DNA of 64,000 nt from Haliotis cracherodii (GCF_022045235.1 NW_027266286.1:1191856-1255855); one strand, 5' to 3'. Positions 1,219 through 32,597 are shown, numbered from the stretch's first letter. Notes: generated from the sequence alone by a model not told the origin. Numbers and translations are program-made.

Positions 1219-1514
1219 GGGCTCCGTGGTCTAGTGGTAGAGCATTCACCCAGAGAAGGCAGGGGGTTCGATCCCCGGCAGTGTCATACCAAAAGACGTT
1301 ACAAAATGGTACTTGTTGTTACCCTGTTGGGTGCGTCTGAGTGGGGTATTCATGTTCAACTGCGGCATATTATCTCAATGAACTAGTACTATAAATGGGC
1401 ATCAGTCCGGACTAGTATAAGCAGCCACACACACACACACTCGTGCATGCACTCTGCTATATAAATGCAATAATCTTGACGTGACGTTAAACCCCATTTC
1501 ACCTCACCTCACCT
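1219..1514 (+). mobile_element. SINE family C copy (internally shorter)
   Basis: tRNA-like head gggctccgtggtctagtggtagagc..ggttcgatcccc, then aaaagacgttacaaaatggtacttgttgttaccctgt..tataaatgggcatcagtccggactagta..(ca)n..caataatcttgacg..cacctcacctcacc. Confidence 0.55.
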
Positions 1515-3249
1515 ATTAAATGAATTATCTCCTTACGGGCGAGTAATAAAACAAATTGATAACATGTAAACTATATCTTGTTGGCGTACATGTACTCGCA
1601 AAATATTTTTAAAAAGAATTGTGCATTATAAGTGCCTCTGTAGCCAAGTGATTCACTCAAGGCTACAGACACAAAAGTTACACTTAGATCTCTCTGGAGG
1701 ATGTTAGTCATTTGATATGACGTCATTCGGCCCATGTCCTTAAGTTAGCATTGTAATATATGTCATATAGATTGTGATCAAATGCAAAATAAATCTCTGG
1801 GACAGAATAACTGTCCTTGGGTTATTCTATAGAATTTCTTCGGCAGTCTGGAGATTAAATTATCTTGAGAACAGAAGAAGCTCTAATAAGGATGACATCA
1901 CTTGAGGCTGATATCACTATGGTGAAACCCACGAGCACGGGTATGGTGCTGACAAACTTAGAAACTTAATCAGGACCAATCACAGGTTTCTTACAAATTG
2001 CAGTGACTAGATTCCTCAGGCAGGAGGAGGAGGAGGTGGAGAAGGAGGTTGCATTAGGATTCTATATTACATGAAACATATCACAGAAACTGGAGCCATA
2101 CATTCAGTGACTGTGGTGTGGACAATGCAGAATATTATATGTATGCTTCAGTCAGTCATGACCTGATTGAACGAGGGAATGGATTTCTCTGGTGATTGGA
2201 TAGCAGTTAGCTAGTGTCCCAGATCGGCAATATAACTTGAATAAAACAACAGTATTAGTCATCCAATGAGATTATTTCACATTTAGGTCAGAAAGGTCAA
2301 CAACGGGCGGATTTTCTTTCATAAATCGTAGTAATAGCACTCCCAAATATTGGCATACATTTGTTGGAAATTGATAGCGCAAACACTTCTGGGAAATTTA
2401 TGAGGCAAAGTCGTCAGACTGTTAACAGACTACCACAGACAGAAAAAACACAATATTTTGATGAAATTACAGGCAATGATGTTGCATCAGGACAAACACC
2501 CTTTATATCCCTTTAGCATGTTTTAGCTAAATCGCGTCAAGACTGCGTCATCCCTGAAGATTGGTCAGATTAAACACATTGCCAAATAGTCAAGCTACTG
2601 ATCATTCATTTTCAATATCTGTTTGTGTTTATCTTAAATGATCTTTGACCGAAAGTGATATGGGTAGATTGTGAATCTTTTTATTGTTATTGCCCTGTGT
2701 ATCCATCGAGGCCAAAGGATACAGGGGTCAATAAAAAATACTTTGCGTATGTTCAGCTACTTATTCCTGTGGGTTAATGAAGTTAATATTTAAATCAACC
2801 GAAATTATTAACTGACAATTATGACTGATTGATCGTGATTTTAAAACTAAATATTAATCTCATGCTAGCTACATCTAGACACAGTATTTGTTTTGTGCTT
2901 TTTAGAAAAATCAAAATTCAAATGAGACAAATTTGAATGAATATTCTCTCAAATTGTTTGTTTGTTCTATAAATGAAGGCCAAGGAAGCATGTTAAATGA
3001 GTATGGATAAGGAGAACTTTGTGGTACTAAGCCATTGTAAGTTGACAGATTGTGTGAGTGTTTAACATTTAAATTTAATAGTTGCTATATTCAAATTCTC
3101 AGCTTCTCAACACCTTTGTTTGTTGTGTTTTGCATTATTTCTGTTTCATGTGCAACTTCTGTTTTTAAAAATAATCAGTTATCATGTTGACTTTTGACAT
3201 TTGGGCATTAATTTGGGGCGGGGGCAGATATAGTCAACGCATAGTCTGT

Positions 3250-4075
3250 CTGCCCGTCCGTAATCATTTAGTTTCCAGAGCATAACTCGAAAACCTGTCA
3301 ATATCTTTCAACAAAACTTGGCAGGTATATCAAACAGATCTTGAACTGGTTCCTTTTGCTATTTTTGGACTTTTGGCGTTTTTATTTTCCACGCTTTCCT
3401 TGGAAACAATTTGTATTTAGTCTCTTTAGGGGTAGTTTTCGTTTCCGGAGCATAACCCGAAAACATTTCAATATCCTTCAACAAAACTTGGCAGATATAT
3501 CAAACAGATCCTGAAGTGGTGCCTTTTGCTATTTGCAGATATTTTGCATTTCTATTTTTCTCCATTTCCATGGAAACAATTTTGACTTACTCTCAAAATG
3601 TGGATTTCATTTCTGGAGCACAACTTAAAATCCTTGAAAGACTATACATCCAAACCTGGTACATGTATTAACCAAGGGCTGAAGTGCTGCATCCAAACCT
3701 GGTACATGTATTAACCAAGGGCTGAAGTGCTGCATCCAAACCTGGTACATGTATTAACCAAGGGCTGAAGTGCTGCATCCAAACCTGGTACATGTATTAA
3801 CCAAGGGCTGAAGTGCTGTGTTTTGCTCTATAGGAATTTTTCCAAATTACATTTGTCCCTGTGTCCATGGAAACAAGTTCGACTTAGCTGAAAGGAGGTA
3901 GGTGTTGTTTTCTGAGCAGAGCTAGATAAACTAGTCAACCTTTCTCATCAAAACTTGGTACATGTATTAATCAGGGGCTGAAGTGCTGCCTCTTGCTATT
4001 TAGGAATTTTCTTTTAAATATTTTTTGTCTGTTGTTGTCTGGCAACAAGCTTGATTTGACTCTGTTTCTATGGGT
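3250..4075. repeat. About 175-bp higher-order tandem repeat (about 4.5 units) with an embedded 42-bp sub-array at 3640-3830
   Basis: Recurring ..tcaacaaaacttggYaNRtatatYaaNcagRtc..gctatttNcagRWWttt..ccatggaaacaaKtt.. blocks. Four exact 42-bp copies of atccaaacctggtacatgtattaaccaagggctgaagtgctgc. Confidence 0.7.
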
Positions 4076-4327
4076 GTGTCTGACATAGAAATACAAATTG
4101 CCGAATCCAGATTCCATTCTTGTTTTGATTGCTCAATAACTACTCTGGTACACAGACAGATGAGATCAAAATTCTCTCAATGTAACAGTCAGATGATTTG
4201 TTCTTAGGGGCGGGGGAATTGTCATTCTGATGACTCTTGTCACCCTGTGAAATGCATTGACCATGCATCTATTTATGTTTATTTAATTATATTTCTTTAT
4301 GATGATGATGATGATGATGACAGTTAC

Positions 4328-4412
4328 CTGTAAATCAGCCAGAATGTTACGACAGCTGCTCCCAACACAACGAAAGCAAGACACAACATTATGATCGCAG
4401 CAATCATGGTCC
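4328..4412 (-). CDS. Exon 4, transmembrane helix; (G)TMIAAIIMLCLAFVVLGAAVVTFWLIY(+ag)
   Basis: Acceptor tatatttgcag|gg, donor ACAG|gtaact followed by an (ATC)7 microsatellite. A 25-residue hydrophobic helix in the frame required by exon 3. Confidence 0.65.
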
Positions 4413-4555
4413 CTGCAAATATAAAACACATTAATGAGCCTTTGTAGCTGAAAGATAGGCTTTGTATAGTGACTCTATCTTACTTGAATGTGCATCTCAA
4501 ATTATCAATGCCCACCTTGCCAAATTGACAAAGTATGAAATAGTGTATCAGTTGT

Positions 4556-6630
4556 CCACAATGGCTCCTCAGTCTCAACAAAATCCCTGGGGTACGTTCA
4601 ACAAAGTGATCGCCGCTCTAAGGTGATCGTAACTCCTATACTTTAACATAGACTTCAGACAGTCGTAGCACTAAGGTGATTGTAACTCCCATACTTAAAC
4701 ATAGACTTCAGACAGTCGTAGCACTAAGGTGATCGTAACTCCCATACTTTAACATTGACTTCAGACAGTCGTAGCACTAAGGTGATCGTAACTCCCATAC
4801 TTTAACATTGACTTCAGACAGTCGTAGCACTAAGGTGATCGTAACTCCCATACTTTAACATAGACTTCAGACAGTCGTAGCACTAAGGTGATCGTAACTC
4901 CTATACTTTAACATTGACTTCAGACAGTCGTAGCACTAAGGTGATCGTAACTCCTATACTTTAACATTGACTTCAGACAGTCGTAGCACTAAGGTGATCG
5001 TAACTCCTATACTTTAACATAGACTTACGACAGCCATAGCGCTAAGGTAATCGTAACTCCTATACTTGAATATAGACTTACGACTGTCATAGCACTAAGG
5101 TGATCGTAACTCCTATACTTTAACATAGACTTCAGACATTCGTAGCACTAAGGTGATCGTAACTTTTATACTTGAATATAGACTTACGACTGTCATAGCA
5201 CTAAGGTGATCGTTACTCCTATACATTAACATATACTTCAGACAGTCGTAGCGCTAAGGTGATCGTAACTCCTATACTTTAACATAGACTTCAGACAGTC
5301 GTAGCGCTAAGGTGATCGTAACTCCTATACTTTAACATAGACTTCAGACAGTCGTAGCGCTAAGGTGATCGTAACTCCTATACTTTAACATAGACTTACG
5401 ACAATGGTAGTGCTTAGGCGATCGTAACTCCTATACTTTAACATAGACTTACGACAGTCGTAGCACTAAGGTGATCGTAACTCCTATACTTTAACATAGA
5501 CTTACGACAGCCATAGCGCTAAGGTAATCGTAACTCCTATACTTGAATATAGACTTACGACTGTCATAGCACTAAGGTGATCGTAACTCCTATACTTTAA
5601 CATAGACTTCAGACAGTCGTAGCACTAAGGTGATCGTAACTTTTATACTTGAATATAGACTTAAGACTGTCATAGCACTAAGGTGATCGTAACTCCTATA
5701 CATTAACATATACTTCAGACAGTCGTAGCGCTAAGGTGATCGTAACTCCTATACTTTAACATAGACTTCAGACAGTCGTAGCGCTAAGGTGATCGTAACT
5801 CCTATACTTTAACATAGACTTCAGACAGTCGTAGCGCTAAGGTGATCGTAACTCCTATACTTTAACATAGACTTCAGACAGTCGTAGCGCTAAGGTGATC
5901 GTAACTCCTATACTTTAACATAGACTTCAGACAGTCGTAGCGCTAAGGTGATCGTAACTCCTATACTTTAACATAGACTTACGACAATGGTAGCGCTTAG
6001 GCGATCGTAACTCCTATACTTTAACATAGACTTACGACAGTCGTAGCACTAAGGCGATCGTAACTCCTATACTTTAACATAGACTTACGACAGTCGTAGC
6101 ACTAAGGTGATCGTAACTCCTATACTTTAACATAGACTTACGACAGCCATAGCGCTAAGGTAATCGTAACTCCTATACTTGAATATAGACTTACGACTGT
6201 CATAGCACTAAGGTGATCGTAACTCCTATACTTTAACATAGACTTCAGACAGTCGTAGCACTAAGGTGATCGTAACTTTTATACTTGAATATAGACTTAC
6301 GACTGTCATAGCACTAAGGTGATCGTAACTCCTATACATTAACATATACTTCAGACAGTCGTAGCGCTAAGGTGATCGAAACTCCTATACTTTAACATAG
6401 ACTTCAGACAGTCGTAGCGCTAAGGTGATCGTAACTCCTATACTTTAACATTGACTTCAGACAGTCGTAGCGCTAAGGTGATCGTAACTCCTATACTTTA
6501 ACATAGACTTACGACAATGGTAGCGCTAAGGCGATCGTAACTCCTATACTTTAACATGGACATACGACTGTCGTAGCGCTAAGGTGATCGTAACTCCTAT
6601 ACTTTAACATAGACTTACAACAATGGTAGC
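4556..6630. repeat. About 60-bp tandem array (about 33 units) derived from the core of a palindromic MITE-like element (termini gggtRcgttcaacaaagYga..tcgctttgttgaacgggaccc)
   Basis: Unit tcgtagcRctaaggtgatcgtaactcctatactttaacatagacttcagacag. Solo copies of the palindromic element lie at 47757-47875, 50989-51096 and about 420-495. In intron 3 of the minus-strand gene. Confidence 0.8.
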
Positions 6631-6810
6631 CCTATGTTTGCTTTGGGGAACAGGTCCCAGATACAGTTGTGGTTCACCCCTGCCATGATGCATCTATTCT
6701 TGTCTGTTTTTAAAACTTGGTCCACTGAAACTTGCCTCAGTCATAAAGATGTAACAAATAATGTTTTGGTTGAAAACTTTAGCCAGTTCTAGAGCTGTTC
6801 AATCTGAGCA

Positions 6811-6982
6811 GGGGTGGTCTGGTAGCCTAGTGGTTAAAGCATTTGCTCACCACGCCGAAGACCCGAGTTCGATTCCCGACATCGGTACAATGTGTAAAGT
6901 CTATTTCTGGTGTCCCCCGCCGTAATAATTCTGGAATATTGCTAAAAGCTGCGTAAAATCCTACTCGTTCACTCACTCAATC
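6811..6982 (+). mobile_element. SINE family A copy
   Basis: ggtggtctggtagcctagtggttaaagc..cgagttcgattcccgac..ggtacaatgtgtaaag..ttctggtgtcccccgcc..attgctaaaagctgcgtaaaatcc..actcactcaatc. Confidence 0.6.
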
Positions 6983-7037
6983 TTAGCAGTGTTACTGTCA
7001 TGTTGAAGTGATCTTCTAATTTATGTTACATACTTAC

Positions 7038-7208
7038 CATTTTCTCCATGGGCCATGGATGGGGGGCTGGCGCTGGGGCTGGGGCTGGGGTTGGGGCTGG
7101 GGCTGGGGCTAGGGCTAGGGCTGGCGTTGGTTGTCTGTAAGTTCAGAATGTCGTAGCCCAGGAAAGATTCTTCCTCAGACTTTGACTTACAGGTGAAATT
7201 AATATTAC
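7038..7208 (-). CDS. Exon 3, membrane-proximal stalk; (G)NINFTCKSKSEEESFLGYDILNLQTTNASPSPSPSPSPNPSPSPSASPPSMAHGEN(+g)
   Basis: Acceptor tgtgtttcag|gt at 7208. Canonical donor AATG|gtaagt at 7037. Phase matches exon 2 (end phase 1) and exon 4. Contains a coding (GGGGCT)n run encoding (SP)n. Confidence 0.6.
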
Positions 7209-7319
7209 CTGAAACACATGTACACAGATATAAGAAGAGTGGTGATGTGGCTACATGGACCTCATTGATTTACATTCTTGACTTTAGCCTTCAACCATCC
7301 TGACCCACGTCCAAAATCC

Positions 7320-7610
7320 TAGCAGGACAACTATCTTAGCACATCTACCTTAATCAACATCTGTCTTAGCCAACAACAGTCTTAGCACAACAATTATCTT
7401 AGCACAACAACTATCTTAGCACAACAACAGTCTTAGCACAACAACTATCTTAGCACAACAACTATCTTAGCACAACAGTCTTAGCCAACAACAGTCTTAG
7501 CACAACAACTATCTTAGCACAACTATCTAAGCACAACAACAGTCTTAGCATAACAACAGTCTTAGCCAACAACTATCTTAGCCAACAACTATCTTAGCCA
7601 ACAACTACAG
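7320..7610. repeat. 20-bp minisatellite acaactatcttagcacaaca
   Basis: Visible tandem periodicity in intron 2 of the minus-strand gene. Confidence 0.8.
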
Positions 7611-8060
7611 TTAATCTTAAGAATAACGAGAACGTGAATTAAATGCGAAAAATCTGAGTGGTCTTTGCATTATTGAAACTTCGCATTTATGTCTAAAAAA
7701 TGACTATCAACAATAAGATGGCCTCATTTCATACTTTTAGTAGCGGAAAAACCAACTTGAATATATACACAAACACGGTTTATTGAGCAGCAGTTGTAAC
7801 AAGTATATAACAATGTCATTCAAAGAAAAGGAATTACATAATAGGCATCAAGGGTTGTACCCACTCGTGTCAAACTAATAAGGCCGTCCAGCAGTCCAGA
7901 CAGGCACCACCCACGCAACACTTTGTCAAAGGCGGACACGACCCAACGCGCACCGATAGGCTTCATCACACTCCCCAGATATACAGCCTTTTTGTTGTCA
8001 TCTGCCTTCAATTTTTTTTGAAACCTTATCCGCATACTAATCTGTGAACTGTTGTTGGTT

Positions 8061-8332
8061 GAGTGAGTAAGTGAGTTGGGTTTAATGCCGCTTTTAACAC
8101 TGTGTCAGCTTAATGTGGGAGGAAAGCCAGAAGTGATGCAGGTCTCAGACATTCACCACTTCGGTGAAACCCACGAGCACGGGTATGGTGCTGACAAAAC
8201 TAGAAACGTAATCGGGGCGAACCGGGATTCGAACCCACAATCATAGTTTTCTGGCGTGCCCAAGGGACGCAACTCTGCACAGCGAGTCGCGGCGCCTTAG
8301 AAGAATGGGGCGCCTTAGAAGAATGGGCCACC
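8061..8332 (-). mobile_element. SINE family B (different tRNA-like head ..gcgtcccttgggcacgcc..gggttcgaatcccgg.., body ..gtcagcaccatacccgtgctcgtgggtttcacc.., same 3' tail module as family A)
   Basis: Plus strand shows (gagt)n + gggtttaatgccgcttttaacact (RC of the family-A-like tail), then body and head. Second copy at 40270-40504(-); fragments at about 1898-2000 and 52784-52872. Confidence 0.55.
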
Positions 8333-8518
8333 TGTGCCCCCTTATTGCCTTTGAACTTCCTTAATGCCTGTCAACAGAATAAACGTATAAACTGTGTGTT
8401 GTTTTTAGGAAAGAACTGTTTATTGTTTATATGGAAGTGCTCTTCTCGGCATTTTTGCTAGGGTTCAGCAGTCGTATTAATTTGGAGACGCATTAATTTC
8501 CAGATTTACAGTATCTCA

Positions 8519-9105
8519 GCTCACTCACTCACTCACTCACTCACTCACTCACTCACTCACTCACTCACACACTAAAACTGGTATAAACTGGTATAAACAG
8601 ATGTAGCCATGGTAGAAACAGATGAAGCCATGGTATAAATAGATGGAACTTCAGTATAAATAGATGGAACCTCAGTATAAATAGATGGAACCTCAGTATA
8701 AACAGATGTAGCCATGGTAGAAACAGATGAAGCCATGGTATAAATAGATGGAACCTCAGTATAAATAGATGGAACCTCAATATAACCAGATGGAGCCATG
8801 ATAGAAACAGATGGAGCCATGGTATAAATAGATGGAACCTCAGTATAAACAGATGTAGCCATGGAAGAAACAGATGAAGCCATGGTATAAATAGATGGAA
8901 CCTCAGTATAAACAGATGGAACCTCAATATAACCAGATGGAGCCATGATAGAAAGAGATGGAGCCATGGTATAAATAGATGGAACCTCAGTATAACAGAT
9001 GCCCATTTCAACTGTCCCCTGCCATGCTATTGCTGGAATATTGCTTAAAGCGGTGTAAAACCACACTCACTCACTCACTCACTCACTCACTCACTCACTC
9101 ACTCA
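8519..9105. repeat. 21-bp minisatellite (atagatggaacctcagtataa / acagatgRagccatggtaKaa) bounded on both sides by (CACT)n microsatellites
   Basis: (cactcact)n at 8519-8572 and 9058-9105. Track ORFs 8565..9011 and 8572..9066 are periodic artefacts. Confidence 0.8.
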
Positions 9106-9129
9106 CAGAATCGCTGTAGGGCAAGGCAA

Positions 9130-10735
9130 TGTATATTTGCGTTGATGTTATAGTAATAATAGTGGGATGTTACAGAAGTAATAGTGGGATGTTACAGTAA
9201 AAATAGTGGGATGTAACAGTAGTAATAGTGGGATGTTACAGTAGTAATAGTGGGATGTTACAGTAATAATAGTGGGATGTTACAGTAGTAATAGTGGGAT
9301 GTTACAGTAATAATAGTGGGATGTTACAGTAGTAATAGTGGGATGTTACAGTAATAATAGTGGGATGTTACAGTAGTAATAGTGGGATGTAACAGTAATA
9401 ATAGTGGGATGTTACAGTAATAATAGTGGGATGTTACAGTAGTAATAGTGGGATGTTACAGTAGTAATAGTGGGATGTTACAGTAGTAATAGTGGGATGT
9501 AACAGTAATAATAGTGGGATGTTACAGTAGTAATAGTAGGATGTTACAGTAATGAGTGAGTGAGTTTGGTTTTACGCCGCTTTTAGCAATATTCCAGCAA
9601 ATATCACGGCGGGGGACACCAGAAATGGGTTTCACACATTGTACCCATGTCGGGAATCGAACCCGGGTCTTCGGCGTGACGAGCGAACGCTTTAACCACT
9701 AGGCTACCCGACCGCCCCGGATGTTACAGTAGTAATAGTGGGATGTTACAGTAGTAATAGTAGGATGTTACAGTAATAATAGTGGGATGTTACAGTAGTA
9801 ATAGTGGGATGTTAAAGTAGTAATAGTGGGATGTTACAGTAGTAATAGTAGGTTGTTACAGTAATAACAGTGGGATGTTACAGTAGTAATAGTGGGATGT
9901 TACAGTAAAAATAGTGGGATGTTACAGTAAAAATAGTGGGATGTTACAGTAATAACAGTGGGATGTTACAGTAGTAATAGTGGGATGTTACAGTAGTAAT
10001 AGTAGGATGTAACAGTAATAATAGTGGGATGTTACAGTAGTAATAGTAGGATGTTACAGTAATAACAGTGGGATGTTACAGTAGTAATAGTGGGATGTTA
10101 CAGTAGTAATGGTGGGATGTAACAGTAATAATAGTGGGATGTTACAGTAGTAATAATAGGATGTTACAGTAATAACAGTGGGATGTTACAGTAGTAATAG
10201 TGGGATGTTACAGTAGTAATAGTAGGATGTAACAGTAATAATAGTGGGATGTTACAGTAGTAATAGTAGGATGTTACAGTAGTAATAGATGGATGTTACA
10301 GTAGTAATAGTAGGATGATACAGTAATAATAGTGGGATGTTACAGTAGTAATAGTGGGATATTAAAGTAGTAATAGTGGGATGTTACAGTAGTAATAGTA
10401 GGATGTTACAGTAATAACAGTGGGATGTTACAGTAGTAATAGTGGGATGTTACAGTAGTAATAGTAGGATGTAACAGTAATAATAGTGGGATGTTACAGT
10501 AGTAATAATAGGATGTTACAGTAGTAATAGTGGGATGTTACAGTAGTAATAGTAGGATGATACAGTAATAATAGTGGGATGTTACAGTAGTAATAGTGGG
10601 ATGTTACAGTAGTAATAGTGGGATGTTACAGTAGTAATAGTAGGATGTTACAGTAATAACAGTGGGATGTTACAGTAGTAATAGTGGGATGTTACAGTAG
10701 TAATAGTGGGATGTAACAGTAATAATAGTCAGGTG
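9130..10735. repeat. 22-bp minisatellite agtaatagtgggatgttacagt (about 65 units, interrupted by a SINE at 9554-9718), abutting the exon 2 donor of the minus-strand gene
   Basis: On the minus strand the first unit after GCAG|gtaacacctgactattatt is actgtaacatcccactattact, i.e. a copy of the donor region. Confidence 0.85.
9554..9718 (-). mobile_element. SINE family A copy inserted inside the 22-bp minisatellite
   Basis: Reverse complement of the family-A consensus. Array units flank both sides (..gatgttacagtaat| and |gatgttacagtagtaat). Confidence 0.6.
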
Positions 10736-10739
10736 TTAC

Positions 10740-11174
10740 CTGCACCAAAGACGCTGAGATACAGATGGCCGTTCTGCGTCAAGTTGTGGAACGCCTCCAA
10801 GGTGATAGTTCTTTCTGTTGTGTTCTTCCAGCAGTGCTGTGGTATGATGGATTGTGAGGAGTTTCCCGAATGTATCAAACAGTCAGATCCAGTCAAATTA
10901 TTTTGCATTGTAGGCAGATCTAGACCATACGATATGATGGCAGGCGTATTGTTTTTTGTCATGTCGTATGTCACACCGATAGAGACACTTCCAGGGCCAA
11001 GGTTTTCATTTGTCGGTTTGAACCTCTTTAATGTGACATAGAAGTCCTCTTGTGATTGAAGTTTACAGGAGCAAAGAGGAGCAGTAAATTTCGCTCCCTC
11101 ATCCATGTATAATATCACGGGGGTCTGGGAGCTGTTTGTCTCCTGGTCGGTACACATGGGAATGAGACGAGAGG
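10740..11174 (-). CDS. Exon 2, ectodomain with about 8 N-x-S/T sequons and 5 Cys; ..ASRLIPMCTDQETNSSQTPVILYMDEGAKF..NLTQNGHLYLSVFGA(+g)
   Basis: Non-repetitive 142-aa ORF 10729..11157(-) in the track. Acceptor ttttccag|cc at 11174. Donor GCAG|gtaaca at 10739. No stops for 145 codons and GC-rich codon usage. Confidence 0.7.
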
Positions 11175-11456
11175 CTGGAAAAGGAAGAAAAATACAATTA
11201 GTTGCTGGTTCGGGTCCAAATTGAGATTTAGTGGCAAGCTAGGAACATTTTGTATTTATTAGACAAATGAAGTATTTGTAAATTTCTTTTGCCGGACCTA
11301 CACCTATGTCCTAGCCTCTGACAACTCCAAGGCTATATATACTACAAAGAGTCATAGGTCTTCATAGGGGTTATTTCAACAAAATATTAATTTATGTTAG
11401 ATTTAAATAATGTCTTTGGTATTTATCTTCTCTCTGTGCTGGTAATCTAAATAAAT

Positions 11457-11606
11457 CGGGGCGGTCAGGTAACCTAGTGGTTTAAGCGTTCATTCATCAC
11501 GCCAAGACCCGGGTACGATTCCCATTTCTGGTGTCCCCCCTGCCGTGATATTGCTCGAATATTGCCAAAAGCGTCATAAAACCATATTTACTCACTCACT
11601 CACTCT
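11457..11606 (+). mobile_element. SINE family A copy (internal deletion)
   Basis: gggcggtcaggtaacctagtggtttaagcg..ttctggtgtcccccctgccgtgatattgc..aaaagcgtcataaaacc..(actc)n. Confidence 0.55.
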
Positions 11607-11904
11607 AAGTAAATCATAATGTCCAATATTTGTAGTTATATTTGCAGATAACAGATTAACTTCTACAGCAGCTGCTATGTATTATTATAAATCTTTACAT
11701 GATGATGGGACTCATCAGACTCAGTACTGTCCGCAATTAGTATCATCAGCGTCTTTACTTGTGTCGTTATTTTAAATACAAAAAATAAAGCAATAAAGAA
11801 TTCAATTGACATGCAAACATCAACCTATTTTTCATTCGGGAAATCAAGTCGCAAGCAGAAGCCTGTTGTCTTGCACTTGGAGGTACGCTACTGCATGTAA
11901 TGAT

Positions 11905-12375
11905 TCTTGCTGACAAAGCCAACCACATGTTTATTGCACCTGTGGACATGGATTGACAGGTGTTTATTGCACCTGTGGACATGGATTGACAGGTGTTTAT
12001 TGCACATGTGGACATGGATTGACTGGTGTTTATTGCATCTGTGGACATGGATTGACAGGTGTTTATTGCACATGTGGACATGGATTGACAGGTGTTAATT
12101 GCATCTGTGGACATGGATTGACAGGTGTTTATTGCACATGTGGACATGGATTGACAGGTGTTTATTGCATCTGTGGACATGGATTGACAGGTGTTTATTG
12201 CACATGTGGACATAGATTGACAGGTGTTTATTGCATCTGTGGACATGGATTGACAGGTGTTTATTGCACCTGTGGACATGGATTGACAAGTGTTTATTGC
12301 ATCTGTGGACATAGATTGACAGGTGTTTATTGCATCTGTGGACATGGATTGACAGGTGTTTATGTACCTGTGGAC
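11905..12375. repeat. 33-bp minisatellite ggattgacaggtgtttattgcacMtgtggacat (about 14 units)
   Basis: ORFs on both strands (11767..12345, 11953..12396) have 11-aa periodicity. Confidence 0.8.
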
Positions 12376-12677
12376 ATTCTTCTGATTATAAAGTAATGAC
12401 TCAGAAATACGAGTGATAGCGACATAAAGTAAAAATATGATAGATCTGCTATCTTCAGACCTATTCTCCCCAGGAATCTCAATCGCTTAGTCAATGAAAT
12501 CGATGAACACGGTGTCCCACAACGAGTAGAAACATCCTCTGTAGTTTTATACTAACACCAGCAGGAAGTGTCAACACGCCACACACACCAGGGCCACTGT
12601 GACTGGTCAGTGCTGCTGCTGTTCCTATAGTTTACAGTTTGGCTTACGGGAGGAATGGTACTACATATGTATTGACC

Positions 12678-13212
12678 GCCTGTGTGGTCTAGTGGTAGAG
12701 CGTCCGCCCTGACAGCAGAAGGTCTGGGGTTTGATCCCCGGCTGCGTCATACCATAAGACGTTAAAAGATGGTACTTGTTGTTACCCTGTCTGGGGCTCG
12801 GGAATTAAAGGGCTAAAAACAAGGACTGGTCGGCTCGGAGTCAGTATACTGTGTCTGAGTGGGATATTCATGTTAAACTGTGGCATGGTATCTCAGTGGG
12901 CTAGCACTATAAATCGGCATCAGTCCGGACTAGTACAAGCAGCCACACACACACATACATGCATATCACTATTTAAGTGGGGGCGGTCGGGTAGCCTAGT
13001 GATTAAAGCGTTCGCTCGTCACGCCAATGACCCGGGTTCGATTCCCGACATGGGTACAATGTGTGAAGCCCATTTCTTGTGTCCCCCGCCGTGATATTGC
13101 TGGAATATTGCTAAAAGCCGCGTAAAACCATACTCACTCACTCACTCACTATTTAAGTGCAATAATCTTGGACGCGATGTTTAACCCCACTTCACCTCAC
13201 CTCACTACACAT
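12678..13212 (+). mobile_element. SINE family C (tRNA-derived head ggtctagtggtagagc..ggtttgatcccc, about 300 bp body, (CA)n, 3' cacctcacctcac) with SINE-A nested at 12980-13150
   Basis: Same element occurs at 1219-1514(+) and 32722-33052(-). The tRNA-like acceptor stem does not pair, so this is a SINE and not a tRNA gene. Confidence 0.6.
12980..13150 (+). mobile_element. SINE family A (tRNA-like head gggcggtcgggtagcctagtggttaaagcg..gggttcgattccc; tail ttgctaaaagcggcgtaaaacc + (ACTC)n) with 13-bp TSD cactatttaagtg
   Basis: Direct repeats cactatttaagtg at 12967-12979 and 13147-13159 flank the insert. The interrupted sequence is contiguous in the other SINE-C copy (..tataaatgcaataatcttg..). Confidence 0.7.
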
Positions 13213-13476
13213 GTATCATGAATGGGTTCCTTTGAAAGACCTGGGATGCATCAGCAGGACATGTAATTCATTTGATGATAGTAAATGCATCTGTATGTCC
13301 GTGCTCTGTGCTCACGGGGCCAAGTCATCATCAGCTCAGTCAAGTGGACAGTGTGCATACACATCACATTCGTCACATTACCATCTCATCCTACCGGGTA
13401 CCCATTCACTGCTTGGTGAACAGAGGCATGCCCCTGGCCCCAGATGGAACTCGTGTCAACTCGTCATACCCCAGAC

Positions 13477-13634
13477 GGGCAGTCAGGTAGCCTAGTGGTT
13501 TAAGCGTTCACTCGTCACGCCGAAGACCAGACATGGGTACAATGTGTGAAGCCCATTTCTGGTGTCCCCCATCGGGATATTGCTGGAATATTGCTAAAGG
13601 CAGTGTCAAATCATATTCACTCACTCACTAACTC
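13477..13634 (+). mobile_element. SINE family A copy
   Basis: gggcagtcaggtagcctagtggtttaagcg..ggtacaatgtgtgaagcccatttctggtgtccccc..ttgctaaaggcagtgtcaaatc..cactcactcactaactc. Confidence 0.55.
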
Positions 13635-13639
13635 ATGTG

Positions 13640-14754
13640 TGTCATATCTCATACCTAGATGGAACTCATGTGTCATACCCCAGACCCAGATGGAACTCAT
13701 GTGTCATACCCCAGACCCAGATGGAAGTCATGTGTCATACCTCATAACCAGATGGAACAAGTGTGTCATACCCCAGTCCCAAATGGAGCTCGTGTCATAC
13801 CCCAGACCCAGGTGGGACAAGTGTGAGACTTACCGTGCCCTAGGTGGGACTCGTGTGTCATACCCCCTACCCAGGTGGGACAAGTGTGTCATACCCTCTA
13901 CCCAGGTGGGACAAGTGTGTCATACCCCCTACCCAGGTGGGACAAGTGTGAGACTTACCGTGCCCGAGGTGGGACTCGTGTGTCATACCCTCTACCCAGG
14001 CGGGACAAGTGTGAGACTTACCGTGCCCCAGGCGGGACAAGTGTGAGACTTACTGTGCCCCAGGTGGGACAAGTGTGAGACTTACCTTGTCCCAGGTGGG
14101 ACAAGTGTGAGACTTACCTTGCCCCAGGTGGGACAAGTGTGAGACTTACCGTGCCCCAGGCGGGACTCGTGTGTCATACCCTCTACCCAGGCGGGACAAG
14201 TGTGAGACTTACCGTGCCCCAGGCGGGACAAGTGTGAGACTTACTGTGCCCCAGGCGGGACAAGTGTGAGACTTACTGTGCCCCAGGCGGGACAAGTGTG
14301 TGACTTACTGTGCCCCAGGTGGAACAAGTGTGTGACTTACTGTGCCCCAGGTGGAACAAGTGTGAGACTTACTGTGCCCCAGGCGGGACAAGTGTGAGAC
14401 TTACTGTGCCCCAGACGGGACAAGTGTGAGACTTACTGTGCCCCAGGTGGAACAAGTGTGAGACTTACTGTGCCCCAGGTGGAACAAGTGTGAGACTTAC
14501 TGTGCCCCAGGTGGAACAAGTGTGAGACTTACTGTGCCCCAGGCGGGACAAGTGTGAGACTTACTGTGCCCCAGGCGGGACAAGTGTGAGACTTACCGTG
14601 CCCCAGGTGGGACTCGTGTGTCATACCCTCTACCCAGGTGGGACTCGTGTGTCATACCCTCTACCCAGGCGGGACAAGTGTGAGACTTACCGTGCCCCAG
14701 GCGGGACAAGTGTGAGACTTACCGTGCCCCAGGCGGGACAAGTGTGAGACTTAC
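13640..14754. repeat. 31-32-bp composite minisatellite. Proximal units are copies of the minus-strand exon 1 end plus its GTAAGT donor (minus reading ggggcacg|gtaagtctcacacttgtcccgcct).
   Basis: The array starts exactly at the donor (14754) and runs through intron 1. Distal units shift to tcataccccagacccagatggaactcatgtg. Confidence 0.85.
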
Positions 14755-14806
14755 CGTGCCCCAGAGACGTGACAGCCAGGAGAATGTACAGTGTGTTGGC
14801 CTCCAT
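14755..14806 (-). CDS. Exon 1 (coding part) of a novel type I membrane glycoprotein; signal peptide MEANTLYILLAVTSLGH(+g)
   Basis: ATG with Kozak context (A at -3, G at +4) and a hydrophobic h-region. Canonical donor CACG|gtaagt. The phase-1 end joins exon 2 in frame. Not in the ORF track; the listed ORF 14719..14952 is in another frame. Confidence 0.5.
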
Positions 14807-15439
14807 GCTGCTCGGTGATAGTAGGTCCTTGCGACAAGCTGGTCCACCGACAACACACAGACAAGAAACAAGGAAGTGTAACTAGCCAGCTCTGCCTGCC
14901 AGGATATGACGAGAGGGAGGGTCGGATGTAGATCAGTCATACACAGCGACAAGAACCAAAACCAGTCCTCACTCAGACTGTCTGTTTAGAAGTATTTCCA
15001 TATTTCAAAGAAACATGTTTTTATTTTTAAGTGGTGAAAAGTTTCAATTGTTTATTGTTGTTGTAATGGTTGTCAATATTTGCCATCAGTTTTTTTCAAC
15101 AAATTAGGAAAGTTTTTAGTTGTTTGTTTTATCAGAAAATAATATTAATGTATATATGATGAACATGCATGGAGTGTGTGCTCAACTGTGTAATACTTCC
15201 TATATCACCACATTCACCTGCTTGTTATCCCAGGTGGGACTGTGGTTAGTTATTACACACGTATTCACAATCAGAGCTAACTGAGTTCAGCTGAAGGAGG
15301 CTGTTAAGGGAAGAATTGTGTGAAGAGTGTATTCACAGCAGATATAGGTCATAGTATTATTCTGTATGAATATTTGTCTCTGTCAATACTCAGGTAGTTC
15401 CTGGGTCCCCTGTCCACAATATTGGGGCCGACACGTGAT

Positions 15440-15830
15440 CTGTAGATGTCTATACAACTCACACTGTTGTCAGTTACCTGCAATCAGGACTCACTGTGCG
15501 TTGTGGGCAGCCACCTGCAATCAGGACTCACTGTGTGTTGTGGGCAGCCACCTGCAATCAGGACTCACTGTGCGTTGTGGGCAGCCACCTGCAATCAGGA
15601 CTCACTGTGTGTTGTGGGCAGCCACCTGCAATCAGGACTCACTGTGTGTTGTGGGCAGCCACCTGCAATCAGGACTCACTGTGCATTGTCGGCAGCCACC
15701 TGCAATCAGGACTCACTGTGTGTTGTGGGCAGCCACCTGCAATCACGACTCACTGTGCGTTGTGGGCAGCCACCTGCAATCAGGACTCACTGTGTGTTGT
15801 CGGCAGCCATGCATGACTTGATCGCTCTTC
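15440..15830. repeat. 37-bp minisatellite caatcaggactcactgtgYgttgtgggcagccacctg
   Basis: Three overlapping frames are open (ORFs 15366..15821 etc.). Artefactual ORFs. Confidence 0.8.
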
Positions 15831-21499: not shown

Positions 21500-22335
21500 T
21501 GTCTGTTTTATTGATTGCTGTATGTTGTATTGACTGCTGTATGTTGTATTGACTGCTGTATGTTGTATTGATTGCTGTGTTGTATTGATTGCTGTATGTT
21601 GTATTGATTGCTGTGTTGTATTGATTGCTGTATGTTGTATTGACTGCTGTATGTTGTATTGACTGCTGTATGTTGTATTGATTCCTCTGTTGTATTGATT
21701 GCTGTATGTTGTATTGACTGCTGTATGTTGTATTGATTGCTGTATGTTGTATTGACTGCTGTATGTTGTATTGACTGCTGTATGTTGTATTGATTGCTGT
21801 GTTGTATTGATTCCTCTGTTGTATTGATTGCTGTATGTTGTATTGATTCCTCTGTTGTATTGATTGCTGTATGTTGTATTGATTGCTGTGTTGTATTGAT
21901 TGCTGTATGTTGTATTGACTGCTGTATGTTGTATTGATTGCTGTATGTTGTATTGACTGCTGTATGTTGTATTGATTGCTGTATGTTGTATAGATTACTG
22001 TATGTTGTATTGATTGCTGTGTTGTATTGATTGCTGTATGTTGTATAGATTACTGTATGTTGTATTGACTGCTGTATGTTGTATTGACTGCTGTGTTGTA
22101 TTGACTGCTGTATGTTGTATTGACTGCTGTATGTTGTATTGATTGCTGTGTTGTATTGATTCCTCTGTTGTATTGATTGCTGTATGTTGTATTGATTGCT
22201 GTATGTTGTATTGATTGCTGTATGTTGTATTGATTGCTGTATGTTGTATTGATTGCTGTATGTTGTATTGATTGCTGTATGTTGTATTGATTGCTGTGTT
22301 GTATTGATTGCTGTATGTTATATTGATTGCTGTGT
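21500..22335. repeat. 21-bp minisatellite tgtattgaYtgctgtatgttg (about 40 units), nearly AG-free, ending about 40 bp upstream of the exon A acceptor
   Basis: Unit resembles the acceptor-proximal sequence caatgtatgttgtattgcag. Only rare AG dinucleotides (e.g. tatagattactg variants). Confidence 0.85.
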
Positions 22336-22378
22336 TTTATGCATAATGATGTACTGATCAATGTATGTTGTATTGCAG

Positions 22379-22490
22379 TTACTACAAATTGGACAACACA
22401 GAGCAGGACATCATTAACAAGTATCTGTCTGGCTTGGTAGAGAAGGCACTGATAGAACTCGAGGGTTCTTACTGTCTGCAAGTTGGTGAG
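22379..22490 (+). CDS. SNRNP200: U5 snRNP 200 kDa helicase (Brr2) exon, C-terminal Sec63 region; encodes (t)YYKLDNTEQDIINKYLSGLVEKALIELEGSYCLQVGE
   Basis: Acceptor tgtattgcag|tt, donor GAG|gtgagt. Translation aligns with human SNRNP200 YYNL..[30 protein letters not shown] from memory. Phase links to next exon. Homology recalled, not searched. Confidence 0.75.
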
Positions 22491-23440
22491 GTGAGTGATG
22501 GAACGTGAGGGTTCTTACTGTCTGCAAGTTGGTGAGGTGAGTGATGGAATGTGAGGGTTCTTACTTTCGGCAAATTGGTGAGGTGAGTGATGTAATGTGA
22601 GGGTTCTTACTGTCTGCAAGTTGGTGAGGTGAGCAATGTGAGGGTTCTTACTGTCTGCAAGTTGGTGAGGTGATTGATGGAACGTGAGGGTTCTTACTGT
22701 CTGCAAGTTGGTGAGTTGAGCGATGGAACATGAGAGTTCTTACTGTCTGAAAGTTGGTGAGGTGAGCAATGTGAGGGTTCTTACTGTCTGCAAGTTGGTG
22801 AGTTGAGCGATGGAACATGAGGGTTCTTACTGTCTGCAAGTTGGTGAGGTGAGTGACGGAATGTGAGGGTTCTTACTGTCTGCAAGTTGGTGAGGTGAGT
22901 GATGGAACGCGAGGGTTCTTACTGTCGGCGAGTTGGTGAAGTGAGTGATGTAATGTGAGGGTTCTTACTGTCTGCATGTTGGTGAGTTGAGCGATGGAAC
23001 ATGAGGGTTCTTACTGTCTGCAAGTTGGTGAGGTGAGCAATGTGAGGGTTCTTACTGTCTGCAAGTTGGTGAGGTGATTGATGGAACGTGAGGGTTCTTA
23101 CTGTCTGCAAGTTGGTGAGTTGAGCGATGGAACATGAGAGTTCTTACTGTCTGCAAGTTGGTGAGGTGAGCAATGTGAGGGTTCTTACTGTCTGCAAGTT
23201 GGTGAGTTGAGTGACGGAATGTGAGGGTTCTTACTGTCTGCAAGTTGGTGAGGTGAGTGATGGAACCTCGAGGGTTCTTACTGTCTGCAAGTTGGTGAGG
23301 TGAGTGACGGAATGTGAGGGTTCTTACTGTCTGCAAGTTGGTGAGGTGAGTGATGGAACGCGAGGGTTCTTACTGTCTGCAAGTTGGTGAGGTGAGAGAT
23401 GGATCTTGAAGCTTCCTACTGTTTGCAAGTTGGTGAGAGC
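22461..23440. repeat. 45-46-bp minisatellite (about 21 units), each unit a copy of the SNRNP200 exon A 3' end plus its 5' splice site (gagggttcttactgtctgcaagttggtgag|gtgagtgatggaaYgt)
   Basis: The first unit is the authentic exon end and donor; the rest follow head-to-tail in the intron. Every unit retains GAG|GTGAGY. Confidence 0.9.
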
Positions 23441-23689
23441 CTTAGACAGTAGTATGATTGAAACCCTTGTACTTCTTCGAAACATAAATGGTACATGTTT
23501 TTGTGATGGTCTGAAACATCTCTCCCTCAGAGGATGGAGCAAAGAAGATGCAAATGTGCTTCTTAAATACCAACTTCATTGAACATTGCCCCATTTTAGT
23601 ATTATGTCTCCCCCCTTAACATTTTTATCCGGATGAGAGTTACCCAGCATATGGTATTTATTCTTCTGTGACACGGGGGCAGAATGCTC

Positions 23690-24125
23690 TCCTGTATGTC
23701 CTAGAGATGCTCTCCTGTATGTCCTAGAGATGCTCTCCCATATGTCCTAGAGATGCTCTCCCATACGTCCTAGAGATGCTCTCCTGTATGTCTTAGAGAT
23801 GCTCTCCTGTACGTCCTAGAGATGCGCTCCCATATGTTCTAGAGATGCTTTACTATATGTCTTAGAGATGCTCTCCTGTACGTCCTAGAGATGCTCTCCC
23901 ATATGTTCTAGAGATACTATCCTGTACATCCTAGAGATGCTCTCCTATATGTCCTAGAGATGCTCTGCCATACGTCCTAGAGATACTCTCCTGTACATCC
24001 TAGAGATGCTCTCCTGTATGTCCTAGATATGCTCTCCTGTATGTCCTAGATATGCTCTCCTGTACATCCTAGAGATGCTCTCCTGTATGTCCTAGAGATG
24101 CTCTCCTGTATGTCCTAGATATGTA
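23690..24125. repeat. 23-bp minisatellite ctagagatgctctcctgtatgtc (about 19 units), ending about 60 bp before the exon B acceptor
   Basis: Tandem copies visible. Confidence 0.85.
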
Positions 24126-24187
24126 TGACAGTGATACAGCTATCCACATACTCTGTGTTCATGTTAAGACGATGTGTGTGTTTCCAG

Positions 24188-24322
24188 GACAACCGCAGCA
24201 TCACGCCGCTGACCCTCGGCCGCATCTCCTCCTACTACTACCTCAACCACAACACTGTGCGCATGTTCTGTAACGAACTCAAGGCTGAGTCGACACTGCC
24301 AGAACTCTTGGACATCTTGTCT
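24188..24322 (+). CDS. SNRNP200: SNRNP200 exon; DNRSITPLTLGRISSYYYLNHNTVRMFCNELKAESTLPELLDILS
   Basis: Acceptor tgtgtgtttccag|gac, donor TCT|gtaagt, 45 codons in phase 0. Matches human [43 protein letters not shown]. Confidence 0.88.
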
Positions 24323-25390
24323 GTAAGTCCAGGTCTACACTGAAACCTCCATAATCCACACCTTGTCAGTCCAGACCTTGCTAATCTGGACCTTGCCAGT
24401 ACTTCATACCCATGTTCAGAGATCTTGTACCCGAAACACTGTCACTGGTGCACCGTCATCCTATATTAAACACTCAGTCGATATTTAGAGTGAAATGATT
24501 ATTAAATGGGTTCCCACTCGCTGGCAGTGTGGGTTCGAATCCCGGATGGGACTCAGCCCAAAGAAGCTCTAGAATCTGTACTTTACTAAGAAAGTATATA
24601 ACATTTGTCACATTTGACCACTTTCTAAACCAGGCATTGTGTATCATAATATAAGTCTTGTAAAGAGGCAGCTCCACCCACTGTGATTATATACACATTA
24701 TCATAAATATCAAGGTCAATAGTTGATTACAAGGATTGGGACACAAAGAATATTCACCTTATTTTTATACCCCCGACAAAATGTCGGGGGTATATAGTTA
24801 TACCAAGGTTCCGTCCGTCCGTCTGTCCAAAAACTTTGTCCGCACGATTTCTCTTAAACTGTTCAGGGGATTAATCTCAAACTTAGTACATATAATCTGT
24901 GTCATATGGAGGGGTGCAGCCCAAAGAAAAAAAATTGTTTTTATTAATTTTCCATTTTTTTAAAGAATTTTTCAAACCCCAACAGCCGTCCGAAAACTTT
25001 GTCCTCGCAATTTCTCTTAAACTATTCAGGGGATTCATCTCAAACTTAATACATATAATCTGTGTCATATGAAGGGGTGCAGTCCAAAGAAAAACATTTT
25101 TTTAAATTAATTTTCCATTTTGTTTATGAATTTTTCAAACCCTAGGCTAACCCTATCCTAGCTATTTGATTTGTAACTACTGACACACTAGGCGGGTTGG
25201 GGGTATTAGTGAGCCATGCTCACTTTTGCACTTGTTAGTAGCAGAATTAGCAACAAAGAAAGACTTATATGATCTCACAACTGACTTTGTGACCTTCTTT
25301 AGAATTGCCTCCCTAGATTGGTGCAGCTGGATCAGAATAACATGTTCTTGTTTGGAGCAGTGATGTCCCATTTTTTCTGTTAATTCCCAG

Positions 25391-25446
25391 AATGCCCACG
25401 AGTATGCGGAGCTCCCAGTCCGCCACAATGAGGACCAGATCAACAG
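25391..25446 (+). CDS. SNRNP200: SNRNP200 exon; NAHEYAELPVRHNEDQIN(+ag)
   Basis: Acceptor ttaattcccag|aat, donor ACAG|gtaggt. Matches human [20 protein letters not shown]. Ends in phase 2. Confidence 0.85.
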
Positions 25447-25785
25447 GTAGGTGGCTTGTTTTCAGTCATCTGACATCTTTTTGAAAACTACACGGCCAGT
25501 GGAGCTGAAACGTGAGGCTGTGAAAAGAATGTGAGTTAAGATGTCTTTGACTTTGTTGAACAAGGCCCAGTTCTTCAGGTATGTCAGGAGTGTTGTCAGT
25601 CAGCTCGATGTGCAGGAAGAACCAGGTCTTAGACGTTTGTCACTTGGTGTCACCTGCTGGTATGGTTTTGACGCTGACAAATACAATCATTATCAGGACG
25701 ACTCTGGCACTTAACCCATGATTATCGGACTGCACTGCACAGCAAATGAGGCACTGATTGTTATGTTTGTTATGTTTCCTGGTAG

Positions 25786-25954
25786 CGACCTGGCCCAGAA
25801 GGTCCCCCTGGCGGTGAACCCCCACTCGTACGACTCCGCCCACACCAAAACCCACATCCTGCTGCAGGCTCACTTCTCCCAGATGCAGCTGCCGTCCACC
25901 GACTACTACACCGATACCAAGTCTGTCCTGGACCAGGCTATCAGGATCCTCCAG
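25786..25954 (+). CDS. SNRNP200: SNRNP200 exon; (S)DLAQKVPLAVNPHSYDSAHTKTHILLQAHFSQMQLPSTDYYTDTKSVLDQAIRILQ
   Basis: Acceptor tttcctggtag|c, donor CAG|gtgggt. Strong match to human [54 protein letters not shown]. GC-rich codon usage versus AT-rich flanks. Confidence 0.9.
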
Positions 25955-25959
25955 GTGGG

Positions 25960-30300: not shown

Positions 30301-30431
30301 AGCTTGCCAGCAAGCAGTCAAAGAGAGACAACTCTTTCAACACTAGGACATGTGCTCCTGTTTTGGTTTGGTTTGGGGTCAGACGCTGCAACAGCTGTAG
30401 TTTCTAATTTGCTTCTAATGTCACCTCACAG

Positions 30432-32554: not shown

Positions 32555-32597
<43 letters not shown>

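Follow-up and report, generated by a model that had tools for sequence, protein, structure and literature searches.

A minisatellite spanning an exon-intron junction in a predicted nested gene of Haliotis cracherodii, with comparable arrays in molluscan ASCC3

Minisatellites that repeat a splice junction have been described from a small number of genes. In amphioxus, "mirages" are minisatellite-like tandem duplications across exon-intron boundaries, found in troponin C, the globins BflGb6/9, and PGBD5 (PMC3087553, PMC3902484), while the mirages of Adh3 are credited there to Canestro et al. 2002 (cited as ref. 68 in PMC3087553), and these duplications leave splicing intact (PMC3087553; PMC3902484). 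Several human minisatellites also have their first monomer across an exon-intron boundary, including those of F7, IFI 6-16, CBS IVS13, LMNB2, and PDGF; the F7 IVS7 unit of 37 bp is made of 4 nt of exon and 33 nt of intron and is present in 5-9 copies, and IFI 6-16 carries 25 pseudo-sites (PMC1557585). In mouse, minisatellites of the mo-2 family (31 bp) fill introns of genes in the pseudoautosomal region, which has been put down to a very high rate of recombination with unequal crossing-over (bioRxiv 10.1101/2022.03.26.485930). Here, we describe an array across the first exon-intron junction of a predicted minus-strand gene, nested antisense within an intron of ASCC3, in a 64,000-nucleotide stretch of Haliotis cracherodii DNA (GCF_022045235.1 NW_027266286.1:1191856-1255855; hereafter the window, with positions counted from its first letter). 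The array shares its anatomy with those of the amphioxus and human genes and belongs to a class already known; in the literature searched, we came across no account of junction-spanning arrays in molluscs.

On the minus strand, the reading ATGGAGGCCAACACACTGTACATTCTCCTGGCTGTCACGTCTCTGGGGCACG|gtaagtctcacacttgtcccgcc places the ATG at 14806, the last base of exon 1 at 14755, and the intron's GT at 14754-14753, and both the exon end (...GTCACGTCTCTGGGGCACG at 14755) and the intron start (gtaagtctcacacttgtcccgcc at 14754) lie exactly where a model working from the sequence alone (the sequence-only reading) had put them. A tandem array of ~36 units in all runs along this strand from 14764 to ~13640. 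Tandem Repeats Finder (TRF) reports 13807-14764 as a repeat of period 32 (30.2 copies, 86% matches, score 1157), followed by a degenerate 31-bp continuation down to 13637. The sequence-only reading had described an intronic array adjacent to the exon; TRF and our unit table confirm that the array is real, but it starts at 14764, 10 nt within the exon, and not at 14754. Unit 1 joins the final 10 nt of exon 1 to the opening 22 nt of intron 1 (GTAAGT plus 16 nt), and units 2, 3, 6, 18, and 24 repeat this junction unit base for base. Homology between junction and array reaches z = 36.7.

Three unit types make up the array. Type A (CTGGGGCAC[G/A]GTAAGTCTCACACTTGTCCCGC; 32 bp, 22 copies) carries GTAAGT, type B (CTGGGTAGAGGGTATGACACACGAGTCCCAC; 31 bp, 8 copies) carries GTATGA, and the distal, degenerate type C (CTGGGTCTGGGGTATGACACATGAGTTCCAT) shares GTATGA with type B. 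All have CTGGG...GGTA.G in common, and A units are homologous to B and C units (z = 3.4 to 4.9). Their order, AAABBAAAAAAAAAAAAABAAAAABABBBACC followed by 4-5 more C units, is structured but non-periodic along the array. The canonical GTAAGT, which had been seen in every proximal unit, is in fact replaced by GTATGA in units 4 and 5, both B-type, although GT stands at the homologous position in 28 of the 30 aligned units; after unit 1, GTAAGT recurs in 22 units. In a scan of the whole 64 kb, the A core matched 23 times (0 expected), every time within the array, and the C core matched 3 times, never outside it. The proximal array of 30 units (22 A and 8 B; 13812-14764, minus strand) is defined by TRF, the unit table, and these core matches, whereas the ~6 older, degenerate C-type units occupy 13640-13811 (minus strand), the last two being orthologous to the only C units of a related species. 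Next to them, a tRNA-derived short interspersed element (SINE) with a (CACT)n tail (13477-13631, plus strand), also present in the related species, is inserted in the old part of the array; two relic C-like units, identified by sequence and unit segmentation, lie past it (13420-13476, minus strand), indicating that the SINE landed inside an already existing array. The array thus belongs with junction-spanning minisatellites, having head-to-tail units within the ~10-170-bp range, a unit that combines exon sequence with a splice signal, and, as unit 1, what is very probably the authentic boundary.

The interpretation depends on exon 1, whose mis-assignment the sequence-only reading had named as the point on which its claim could fall. 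We find that the assignment holds, and the exon 1 donor is very probably genuine, judging from conservation and from a phase-compatible gene model. The 5' splice site (GT at 14753-14754, minus strand; ACG|GTAAGT) scores 10.3 bits with a generic donor matrix, inside the range of the homology-defined ASCC3 donors. The coding part of exon 1 (14755-14806, minus strand; 52 nt), encoding MEANTLYILLAVTSLGH, with one further base that opens the following codon, and ending in phase 1, is identical at 52/52 positions in the related species. Together with the conserved 41 nt of 5' untranslated region just upstream of the ATG (14807-14847, minus strand) and 17 nt of intron, it forms a ~110-nt block free of differences from the orthologous contig (L004), for which the chance is ~0.005 at a background identity of 95%. 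Exon 1 joins exon 2 in matching phase (G+CC = Ala), and exon 2 (10740-11174, minus strand; 435 nt, phase 1-1), which has a homologue (P0001) on genomic contig L001 of the related species, encodes an N-glycosylation-rich ectodomain with 5 Cys. There follow exon 3 (7038-7208, minus strand; 171 nt, phase 1-1), a gene-model exon for NINFTC... and a Ser/Pro stalk, which has no donor array; exon 4 (4328-4412, minus strand; 85 nt), which encodes the transmembrane helix TMIAAIIMLCLAFVVLGAAVVTFWLIY and has a (TCA)7 run beginning 8 nt past its donor; and the start of exon 5 (1-162, minus strand), with the basic stop-transfer sequence RKKQLSKKRRKRDRLK and a cytoplasmic tail that continues beyond the window edge. 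All introns of this five-exon model are GT...AG, all phases are compatible, and the joined open reading frame (ORF) is uninterrupted over 301 codons.

Evidence for the direction of copying comes from the related species, whose genomic contigs L001 and L004 (run DRR299178) are orthologous to the window with 88% and 93.6% nucleotide identity, respectively (the latter over 829 bp). L004 carries, in order, the identical exon 1, one A unit (ctggggcacg|gtaagtctcacacttgtgccac), two diverged C units, and the same SINE, i.e., 3 units in a short-read contig as compared to ~36 in the window. Since its A-type unit occurs solely at the junction itself, the A expansion of the window is donor-derived, as the sequence-only reading had claimed. 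Some 22 extra A units and the B units appear to have been added in the window's lineage, and the relic C-like units past the SINE, together with the presence of that SINE in L004, place a short junction-like array before both the SINE insertion and the species split. Array copy numbers in general differ sharply between the two species; a 37-bp array (15476-15809), for example, has 9 copies in the window and 2 in L004.

We therefore favor, with a probability of roughly 0.72, a junction-spanning intronic minisatellite of the mirage or F7-IVS7 type, neutral and amplified by ordinary array dynamics. In L004, the 6-nt direct repeat CTGGGG stands on both sides of the single A unit, once where the exon ends and again where the first C unit opens, and direct repeats flanking a unit are a classical substrate for slipped-strand duplication. 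The first A duplication would have arisen when the exon-end CTGGGG misaligned with the CTGGGG opening the neighboring old unit 32 nt downstream, so that a 32-bp segment (10 nt of exon 1 end and 22 nt of intron 1 start) was tandemly duplicated. Replication slippage, together with unequal sister-chromatid or allelic exchange, could then have amplified the duplicate to ~30 copies. The array would be a neutral, tolerated by-product with no function of its own, the spliceosome presumably taking the most upstream donor. The high local frequency of such arrays would reflect introns saturated with minisatellites, in which arrays press on, and sometimes recruit, the only constrained intron sequence beside them.

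That frequency is seen at three further donors of the window. A 22-bp array of ~72 copies (9144-10739, minus strand; unit GTAACATCCCACTATTACTACT; z = 18.1) starts exactly at the donor GT of exon 2, its unit containing 0 nt of exon and 22 nt of intron, and is also present in the related species. The other two belong to ASCC3, whose last nine exons lie at 22379-38500 (plus strand), with no earlier ASCC3 exons in the window; the nested gene spans 1-14806 (minus strand) within an ASCC3 intron of at least 22 kb. At the donor of exon Ea (exon located by tblastn), 22 copies of a 46-bp unit (22461-23437, plus strand; z = 44.9) repeat the last 30 nt of the exon (..EGSYCLQVGE) plus gtgagtgatggaacgt, i.e., 30 + 16. 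At the donor of exon Ee (also located by tblastn), 40 copies of a 31-bp unit (30574-31805, plus strand; z = 31) repeat the last 10 nt of the exon (ACTGCTTCAG) plus gtacgtacagtcccatcatgc (10 + 21), and this array occupies the intron up to 40 nt short of the next exon. The exon parts of these two ASCC3 arrays (EGSYCLQVGE and ..YHVYCFR) are conserved across molluscs, which sets the direction there as junction to array. Altogether, junction-copied arrays sit at 4 of the window's 12 donors, against 0.37 expected if founding duplications were uniform (summed periods 1962 x 12 donors / 64000), with P ~6e-4, a post hoc figure because the window was flagged for such arrays.

Three other candidates were rejected as junction copies: an (AGTG)n run near the Ef donor is actually a SINE tail 30 nt downstream, a C-rich array 9 nt after the Ed donor adjoins that junction and does not copy it, and a (GAT)n/63-bp array ending 10 nt before the Eh acceptor abuts without copying. 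The last of these is the larger of two related GAT-rich arrays in one ASCC3 intron (36642-37244 and 33107-33249, plus strand, with 63-bp and 18-39-bp units), and it stops 10 nt before the polypyrimidine/acceptor region of exon Eh.

For a wider comparison, seven further assemblies supplied the orthologous 3' region of ASCC3, making eight loci with the window. The window's ASCC3 is ~60% identical to those of Mytilus and Bulinus alike, while the bivalve-like L002, L003, L005, and L006 are 67-71% identical to Mytilus. Mytilus edulis has ~56 copies of an 82-bp unit that joins the final 73 nt of exon Eg to gtaagttaa. In Bulinus truncatus, a 47-bp array crosses the Ee donor and a 44-bp array (7 copies) crosses the Eh acceptor, and three more arrays begin 20-25 nt past donors without including them. 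In L003, 3 of 6 arrays are junction-spanning (Ed donor, Ee acceptor, and Eg donor); L002, L005, and L006 have arrays of exon Eb; and L006 further repeats the Ee acceptor region (15 copies) and the Ef donor region (~9 copies), while the ASCC3 locus of L007 has no junction-spanning array. Among the 59 arrays of the eight loci, 10 are donor-spanning against 2.76 expected (P 2.6e-4), which becomes P = 0.005 when the Eb arrays of L002, L005, and L006 are taken as one event, and with the window left out, 8 are donor-spanning against 2.48 expected (P 0.002, and up to 0.03 under conservative counting). Donor-side arrays outnumber acceptor-side ones. The acceptor-side arrays (L006 14548-16841, L009 23128-23434, and L003 4328-4652; 15, 7, and 3 copies, respectively) consist of intron end, AG, and exon start upstream of the real exon, so that the authentic site is the last copy rather than the first.

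These counts bear on the proposal of the sequence-only reading that recurrence in a second, unrelated gene reflects a mechanism more than coincidence. The excesses (4 of 12 donors and 10 against 2.8, the latter with conservative P values of 0.005 to 0.03) support it, short of proof. A real junction bias among these loci is suggested, and junction-spanning minisatellites look unusually common in this window and in other molluscs, though part of the excess may come from array-filled introns that leave only constrained, junction-proximal sequence as neighbor and raw material.

The strongest competing explanation takes this bias at face value: exon-intron junctions, above all 5' splice sites, would be mutational hotspots at which this lineage acquires short tandem duplications, possibly owing to polymerase pausing, to collisions of replication with U1-bound nascent RNA or R-loops, or to breaks at exon-edge nucleosomes. 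The excess of junction arrays would follow directly, as would the independent events at different junctions (Eg in Mytilus, the Ee donor and Eh acceptor in Bulinus, those of L003, and the Ee acceptor and Ef in L006) and the preponderance of donor-side cases. That 5' splice sites are genuine birth hotspots of minisatellites in molluscs, as has been suspected for amphioxus, through transcription- or splicing-coupled instability, nevertheless seems to us a tentative proposition with the odds against it. The window was chosen for these arrays, and the cross-species test is modest once made conservative. Intron saturation accounts for abutment, and selection acting on the polypyrimidine tract and branch point could underlie the asymmetry between donors and acceptors. 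Unit boundaries are also variable relative to the junction, the exon part ranging from 0 to 117 nt and the intron part from 9 to 39 nt. Of the two mechanisms floated by the sequence-only reading, slippage gains plausibility from the CTGGGG repeat of the related species, whereas R-loop or transcription-associated duplication finds no compositional support. Sense-strand GC skews of the four donor arrays are -0.10, -0.75, +0.57, and -0.25, negative in three of four, and a shared G-skew or R-loop signature was rejected; hairpin-driven slippage was likewise rejected, the unit DNA folding worse than shuffled sequence (z = +1.58).

Less probable, in our estimate by a good deal, is that the array is the older partner and that its first unit, within the intron, gave rise to the present exon 1 end (CTGGGGCACG) and donor. 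Distal C units that are older than the SINE and the species split, a motif common to all unit types, and a weak resemblance of the upstream TGTCACGTCT to the unit end TGTCCCGC would all suit such an exonisation, and the lineage restriction of the gene means that no deep outgroup fixes the ancestral exon end. The two ASCC3 arrays run the other way, however, from exon parts conserved in molluscs, and the outgroup's single A unit at the junction shows that the A expansion proceeded from there, so that exonisation is viable for the ancient founding event only. That event could have run either way, from junction to array or from array to exon end, the nested gene having no deeper homologues.

Arrays might alternatively arise anywhere and touch exons here and there, with any likeness to a donor being incidental. 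Tandem repeats do make up 47% of the 64 kb in ~50 separate arrays, including a 24-mer with 205 copies (40906-45804) and CACCCTAGCA with ~260 copies (26386-28998), and the Ed, Eh, and Ef arrays and three Bulinus arrays adjoin junctions without copying them. Yet five units here repeat exon sequence exactly, the junction homology is far beyond chance, and the outgroup's junction unit is single-copy. Exon sequence inside the units refutes coincidence for this array, leaving it viable only for arrays that merely abut junctions, and overall we consider it very unlikely.

Equally improbable is that the GTAAGT copies are functional pseudo-donors, kept for binding of the U1 small nuclear ribonucleoprotein, for instance so as to enforce splicing of a first exon that is weakly defined or suppress premature polyadenylation in an intron rich in repeats. 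Retention of GT in 28 of the 30 units, with scores of 6-12 bits, and a GTAAGT hexamer free of substitutions throughout the 22 A units would be compatible with such a role, but the invariance of the hexamer is not significant given the few variable sites, and the outgroup apparently manages with one A unit. The other arrays differ as well. In the 22-bp array, the pseudo-donor GT is kept in a poor context (0.9 bits); in the 46-bp Ea array of ASCC3, GT is kept in 16 of 22 units; and in the 31-bp Ee array, it survives in only 16 of 40, the first ten units being intact (CAG|GTACGT) while most later ones read CAGTTACGT, in which the pseudo-donor is destroyed. The loss in Ee could mean that a variant drifted through the array or that downstream donors were selected against. 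Since pseudo-donors are neither uniformly kept nor uniformly lost in the four arrays, uniform selection is not indicated, as expected under neutrality. An origin as a transposon-derived satellite or assembly artefact that lies beside the exon by chance can be set aside as the least credible alternative, for although the region is SINE-rich, with one SINE in the array, and minisatellites can be mis-assembled, A and C units occur nowhere else in 64 kb, unit variants are ordered and non-periodic, the only Rfam matches are the tRNA-like parts of SINEs, and an independent assembly of the related species has the same junction, C units, and SINE.

For a neutral array to be tolerated, its pseudo-donors should be silent. 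Use of a downstream donor would add 32 nt per A unit (31 per B unit) and shift the frame, and read-through meets a stop in unit 3 (MEANT...GHGKSHTCPAWGTVSLTLVPPGAR*), so only the first donor can give the protein. The human genes provide a precedent: in F7, identical downstream pseudo-donors are functional yet silent, the most upstream site being chosen in a 5'-to-3' process, whereas splicing of IFI 6-16 and CBS occasionally extends to the one or two sites that follow (PMC1557585).

Several points weigh against a neutral minisatellite amplified by ordinary dynamics. First, units 21 and 22 (AAG|GTAAGT) fit the donor consensus better than the authentic site does, and exclusive use of the first site is thus not self-evident; that the first donor is used and ~29 pseudo-donors stay silent is a prediction from the DNA sequence. 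Second, L004 is a short-read de Bruijn contig in which identical units could in principle have been collapsed; it appears to pass from A to C without the break that an A-to-A junction would make in a de Bruijn graph. Third, random founding predicts 0.3-0.4 junction arrays for the window and 2.8 for the eight ASCC3 loci, compared with the 4 and 10 observed, so that neutrality and uniform birth are insufficient and some junction bias is left unexplained.

The nested gene had previously been unrecognisable. Its predicted N-terminus (MEANTLYILLAVTSLGHA|S) has a hydrophobic core at residues 4-16, with Kyte-Doolittle values >2 over residues 5-16, and the predicted protein continues with an ectodomain bearing six N-x-S/T sites and five Cys, a Ser/Pro stalk, a transmembrane helix, and a basic stop-transfer sequence. 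It reads as a textbook type I membrane glycoprotein of a restricted lineage, and the identification of exon 1 as a signal-peptide exon, also made in the sequence-only reading, finds support in the hydrophobic start, a small-residue cleavage motif, the phase-1 intron, and the predicted ectodomain, transmembrane, and basic segments downstream. Among 5.8 billion proteins, its only homologues were two ORFs from one run (DRR299178) of the related species. The exon 2 ORF is open in both species, with indels in frame, all Cys kept, and a ratio of nonsynonymous to synonymous substitution rates (dN/dS) of 0.86, which fits a fast-evolving, lineage-restricted surface protein. Scanning the minus-strand ORFs against Pfam assigned the gene to no family, a PDB sequence search with exon 2 gave no match, and an AlphaFold model from a two-sequence alignment was too poor for use (pLDDT, the predicted local distance difference test score, 46). 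A scan of Joint Genome Institute (JGI) metagenome contigs for the exon 1 sequence returned 0 matches, and neither a paralogue of the exon 2 peptide elsewhere in the window nor a counterpart of it at the other ASCC3 loci was found. The corresponding ASCC3 intron of another relative (L007 5274-6362, plus strand) holds a Kelch-repeat ORF of 362 codons, indicating that nested genes occur in this intron in more than one lineage.

Further observations concern repeats and splice-like motifs elsewhere in the window. Read on the plus strand, the A units (13812-14764) read ...ACTTACCGTGCCCCAG|G, i.e., a branch-point-like CTTAC, a short pyrimidine run, and AG, which amounts to ~22 pseudo-acceptors on the ASCC3 sense strand inside an ASCC3 intron. 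Within 21500-22378 (plus strand), a 19-bp array (TGTATGTTGTATTGATTGC; 45 copies) ends 46 nt before exon Ea, and the last 17 intron nt before that exon (tgtatgttgtattgcag) are a relic unit of it, which makes the polypyrimidine/acceptor region there either array-derived or array-seeding. When all array consensus units were scanned with the donor matrix, high scores beyond the known cases fell at 53088-53715 (minus strand; AAG|GTAAGG), 51356-52561 (minus strand; TCTTCAG|GTGGTGAGG), and 62017-62302 (plus strand; TCG|GTGAGT), all near-perfect donor motifs, and no exon could be tied to these three arrays. Within 54537-56271 (minus strand), a 21-bp array of ~55 copies (54802-55950) starts at a donor-like ...AACGTACCAG|GTACACAC and is flanked by a 204-bp direct repeat of 98% identity (~54577-54780 and 56084-56287) that has an acceptor-like ttccacag|TAGG; this region may be a further junction-anchored array in a larger duplication, belonging to a candidate minus-strand gene. 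tRNA-derived SINEs with (CACT)n tails lie at 9642-9713 (minus strand), 12985-13056 (plus strand), and 13477-13631 (plus strand), two of which pass the Rfam threshold for tRNA; the 22-bp array encloses one of these SINEs, and the exon 1 donor array another. By eye, a 149-codon ORF at 61219-61665 (minus strand) resembles the N-terminal helix-turn-helix part of a Tc1/mariner transposase.

Such arrays have so far counted as peculiar to amphioxus, apart from a handful of curious cases in human genes, and their density here, together with independent arrays in a mussel, a freshwater snail, and other relatives, suggests that junction-spanning minisatellites are common in molluscs; this density is the part worth following up. 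The exon 1 array also offers a natural test case for 5' splice-site choice, with ~29 pseudo-donors, some closer to consensus, behind one authentic site, and with arrays of decayed pseudo-donors in the same window for contrast. If a junction bias held genome-wide, it would indicate a splicing- or transcription-linked mutational process and provide a rich data set for the tandem-duplication model of intron and exon gain, and if junctions are indeed hotspots, mirage arrays would represent widespread, lineage-dependent intron remodelling and raw material for exons and introns. In practice, these arrays mislead gene predictors and short-read assemblers.

Set against the known systems, the locus is closest to the amphioxus mirages, sharing a unit of exon sequence and splice signal at an authentic junction, many units that keep AG or GT, overlapping unit sizes (10-72 bp in Adh3), and several genes hit in one genome. 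It differs in its host, a mollusc (lophotrochozoan) rather than a cephalochordate; in copy number, ~30 as compared to 2-6 in the globins; and in being a compound array of three unit types and a SINE. For amphioxus, copy-number instability and apparently undisturbed splicing have been observed, whereas our case is known from sequence alone. With the human F7-type loci, it shares an authentic donor followed by identical intronic pseudo-donors, and those loci supply a tested mechanism of tolerance; they are isolated, however, while here 4 of 12 donors in 64 kb are involved, again as DNA-level observations. The Rogers model, and likewise Zhuo et al. 2007 (cited in PMC3488318), reportedly derive introns from tandem arrays or from duplication of AGGT-containing segments. 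The locus resembles that scheme in having repeated splice signals in a genic tandem array with the potential for new exons or introns, but the array lies within a pre-existing intron, and the gene model suggests no use of repeat-internal sites. Finally, introns made largely of minisatellite recall the mouse mo-2 introns, to which the 47% repeat coverage of the window may be compared, but mo-2 is one dispersed family not derived from junctions, whereas the arrays here repeat different units, each of them copied from the sequence around it.

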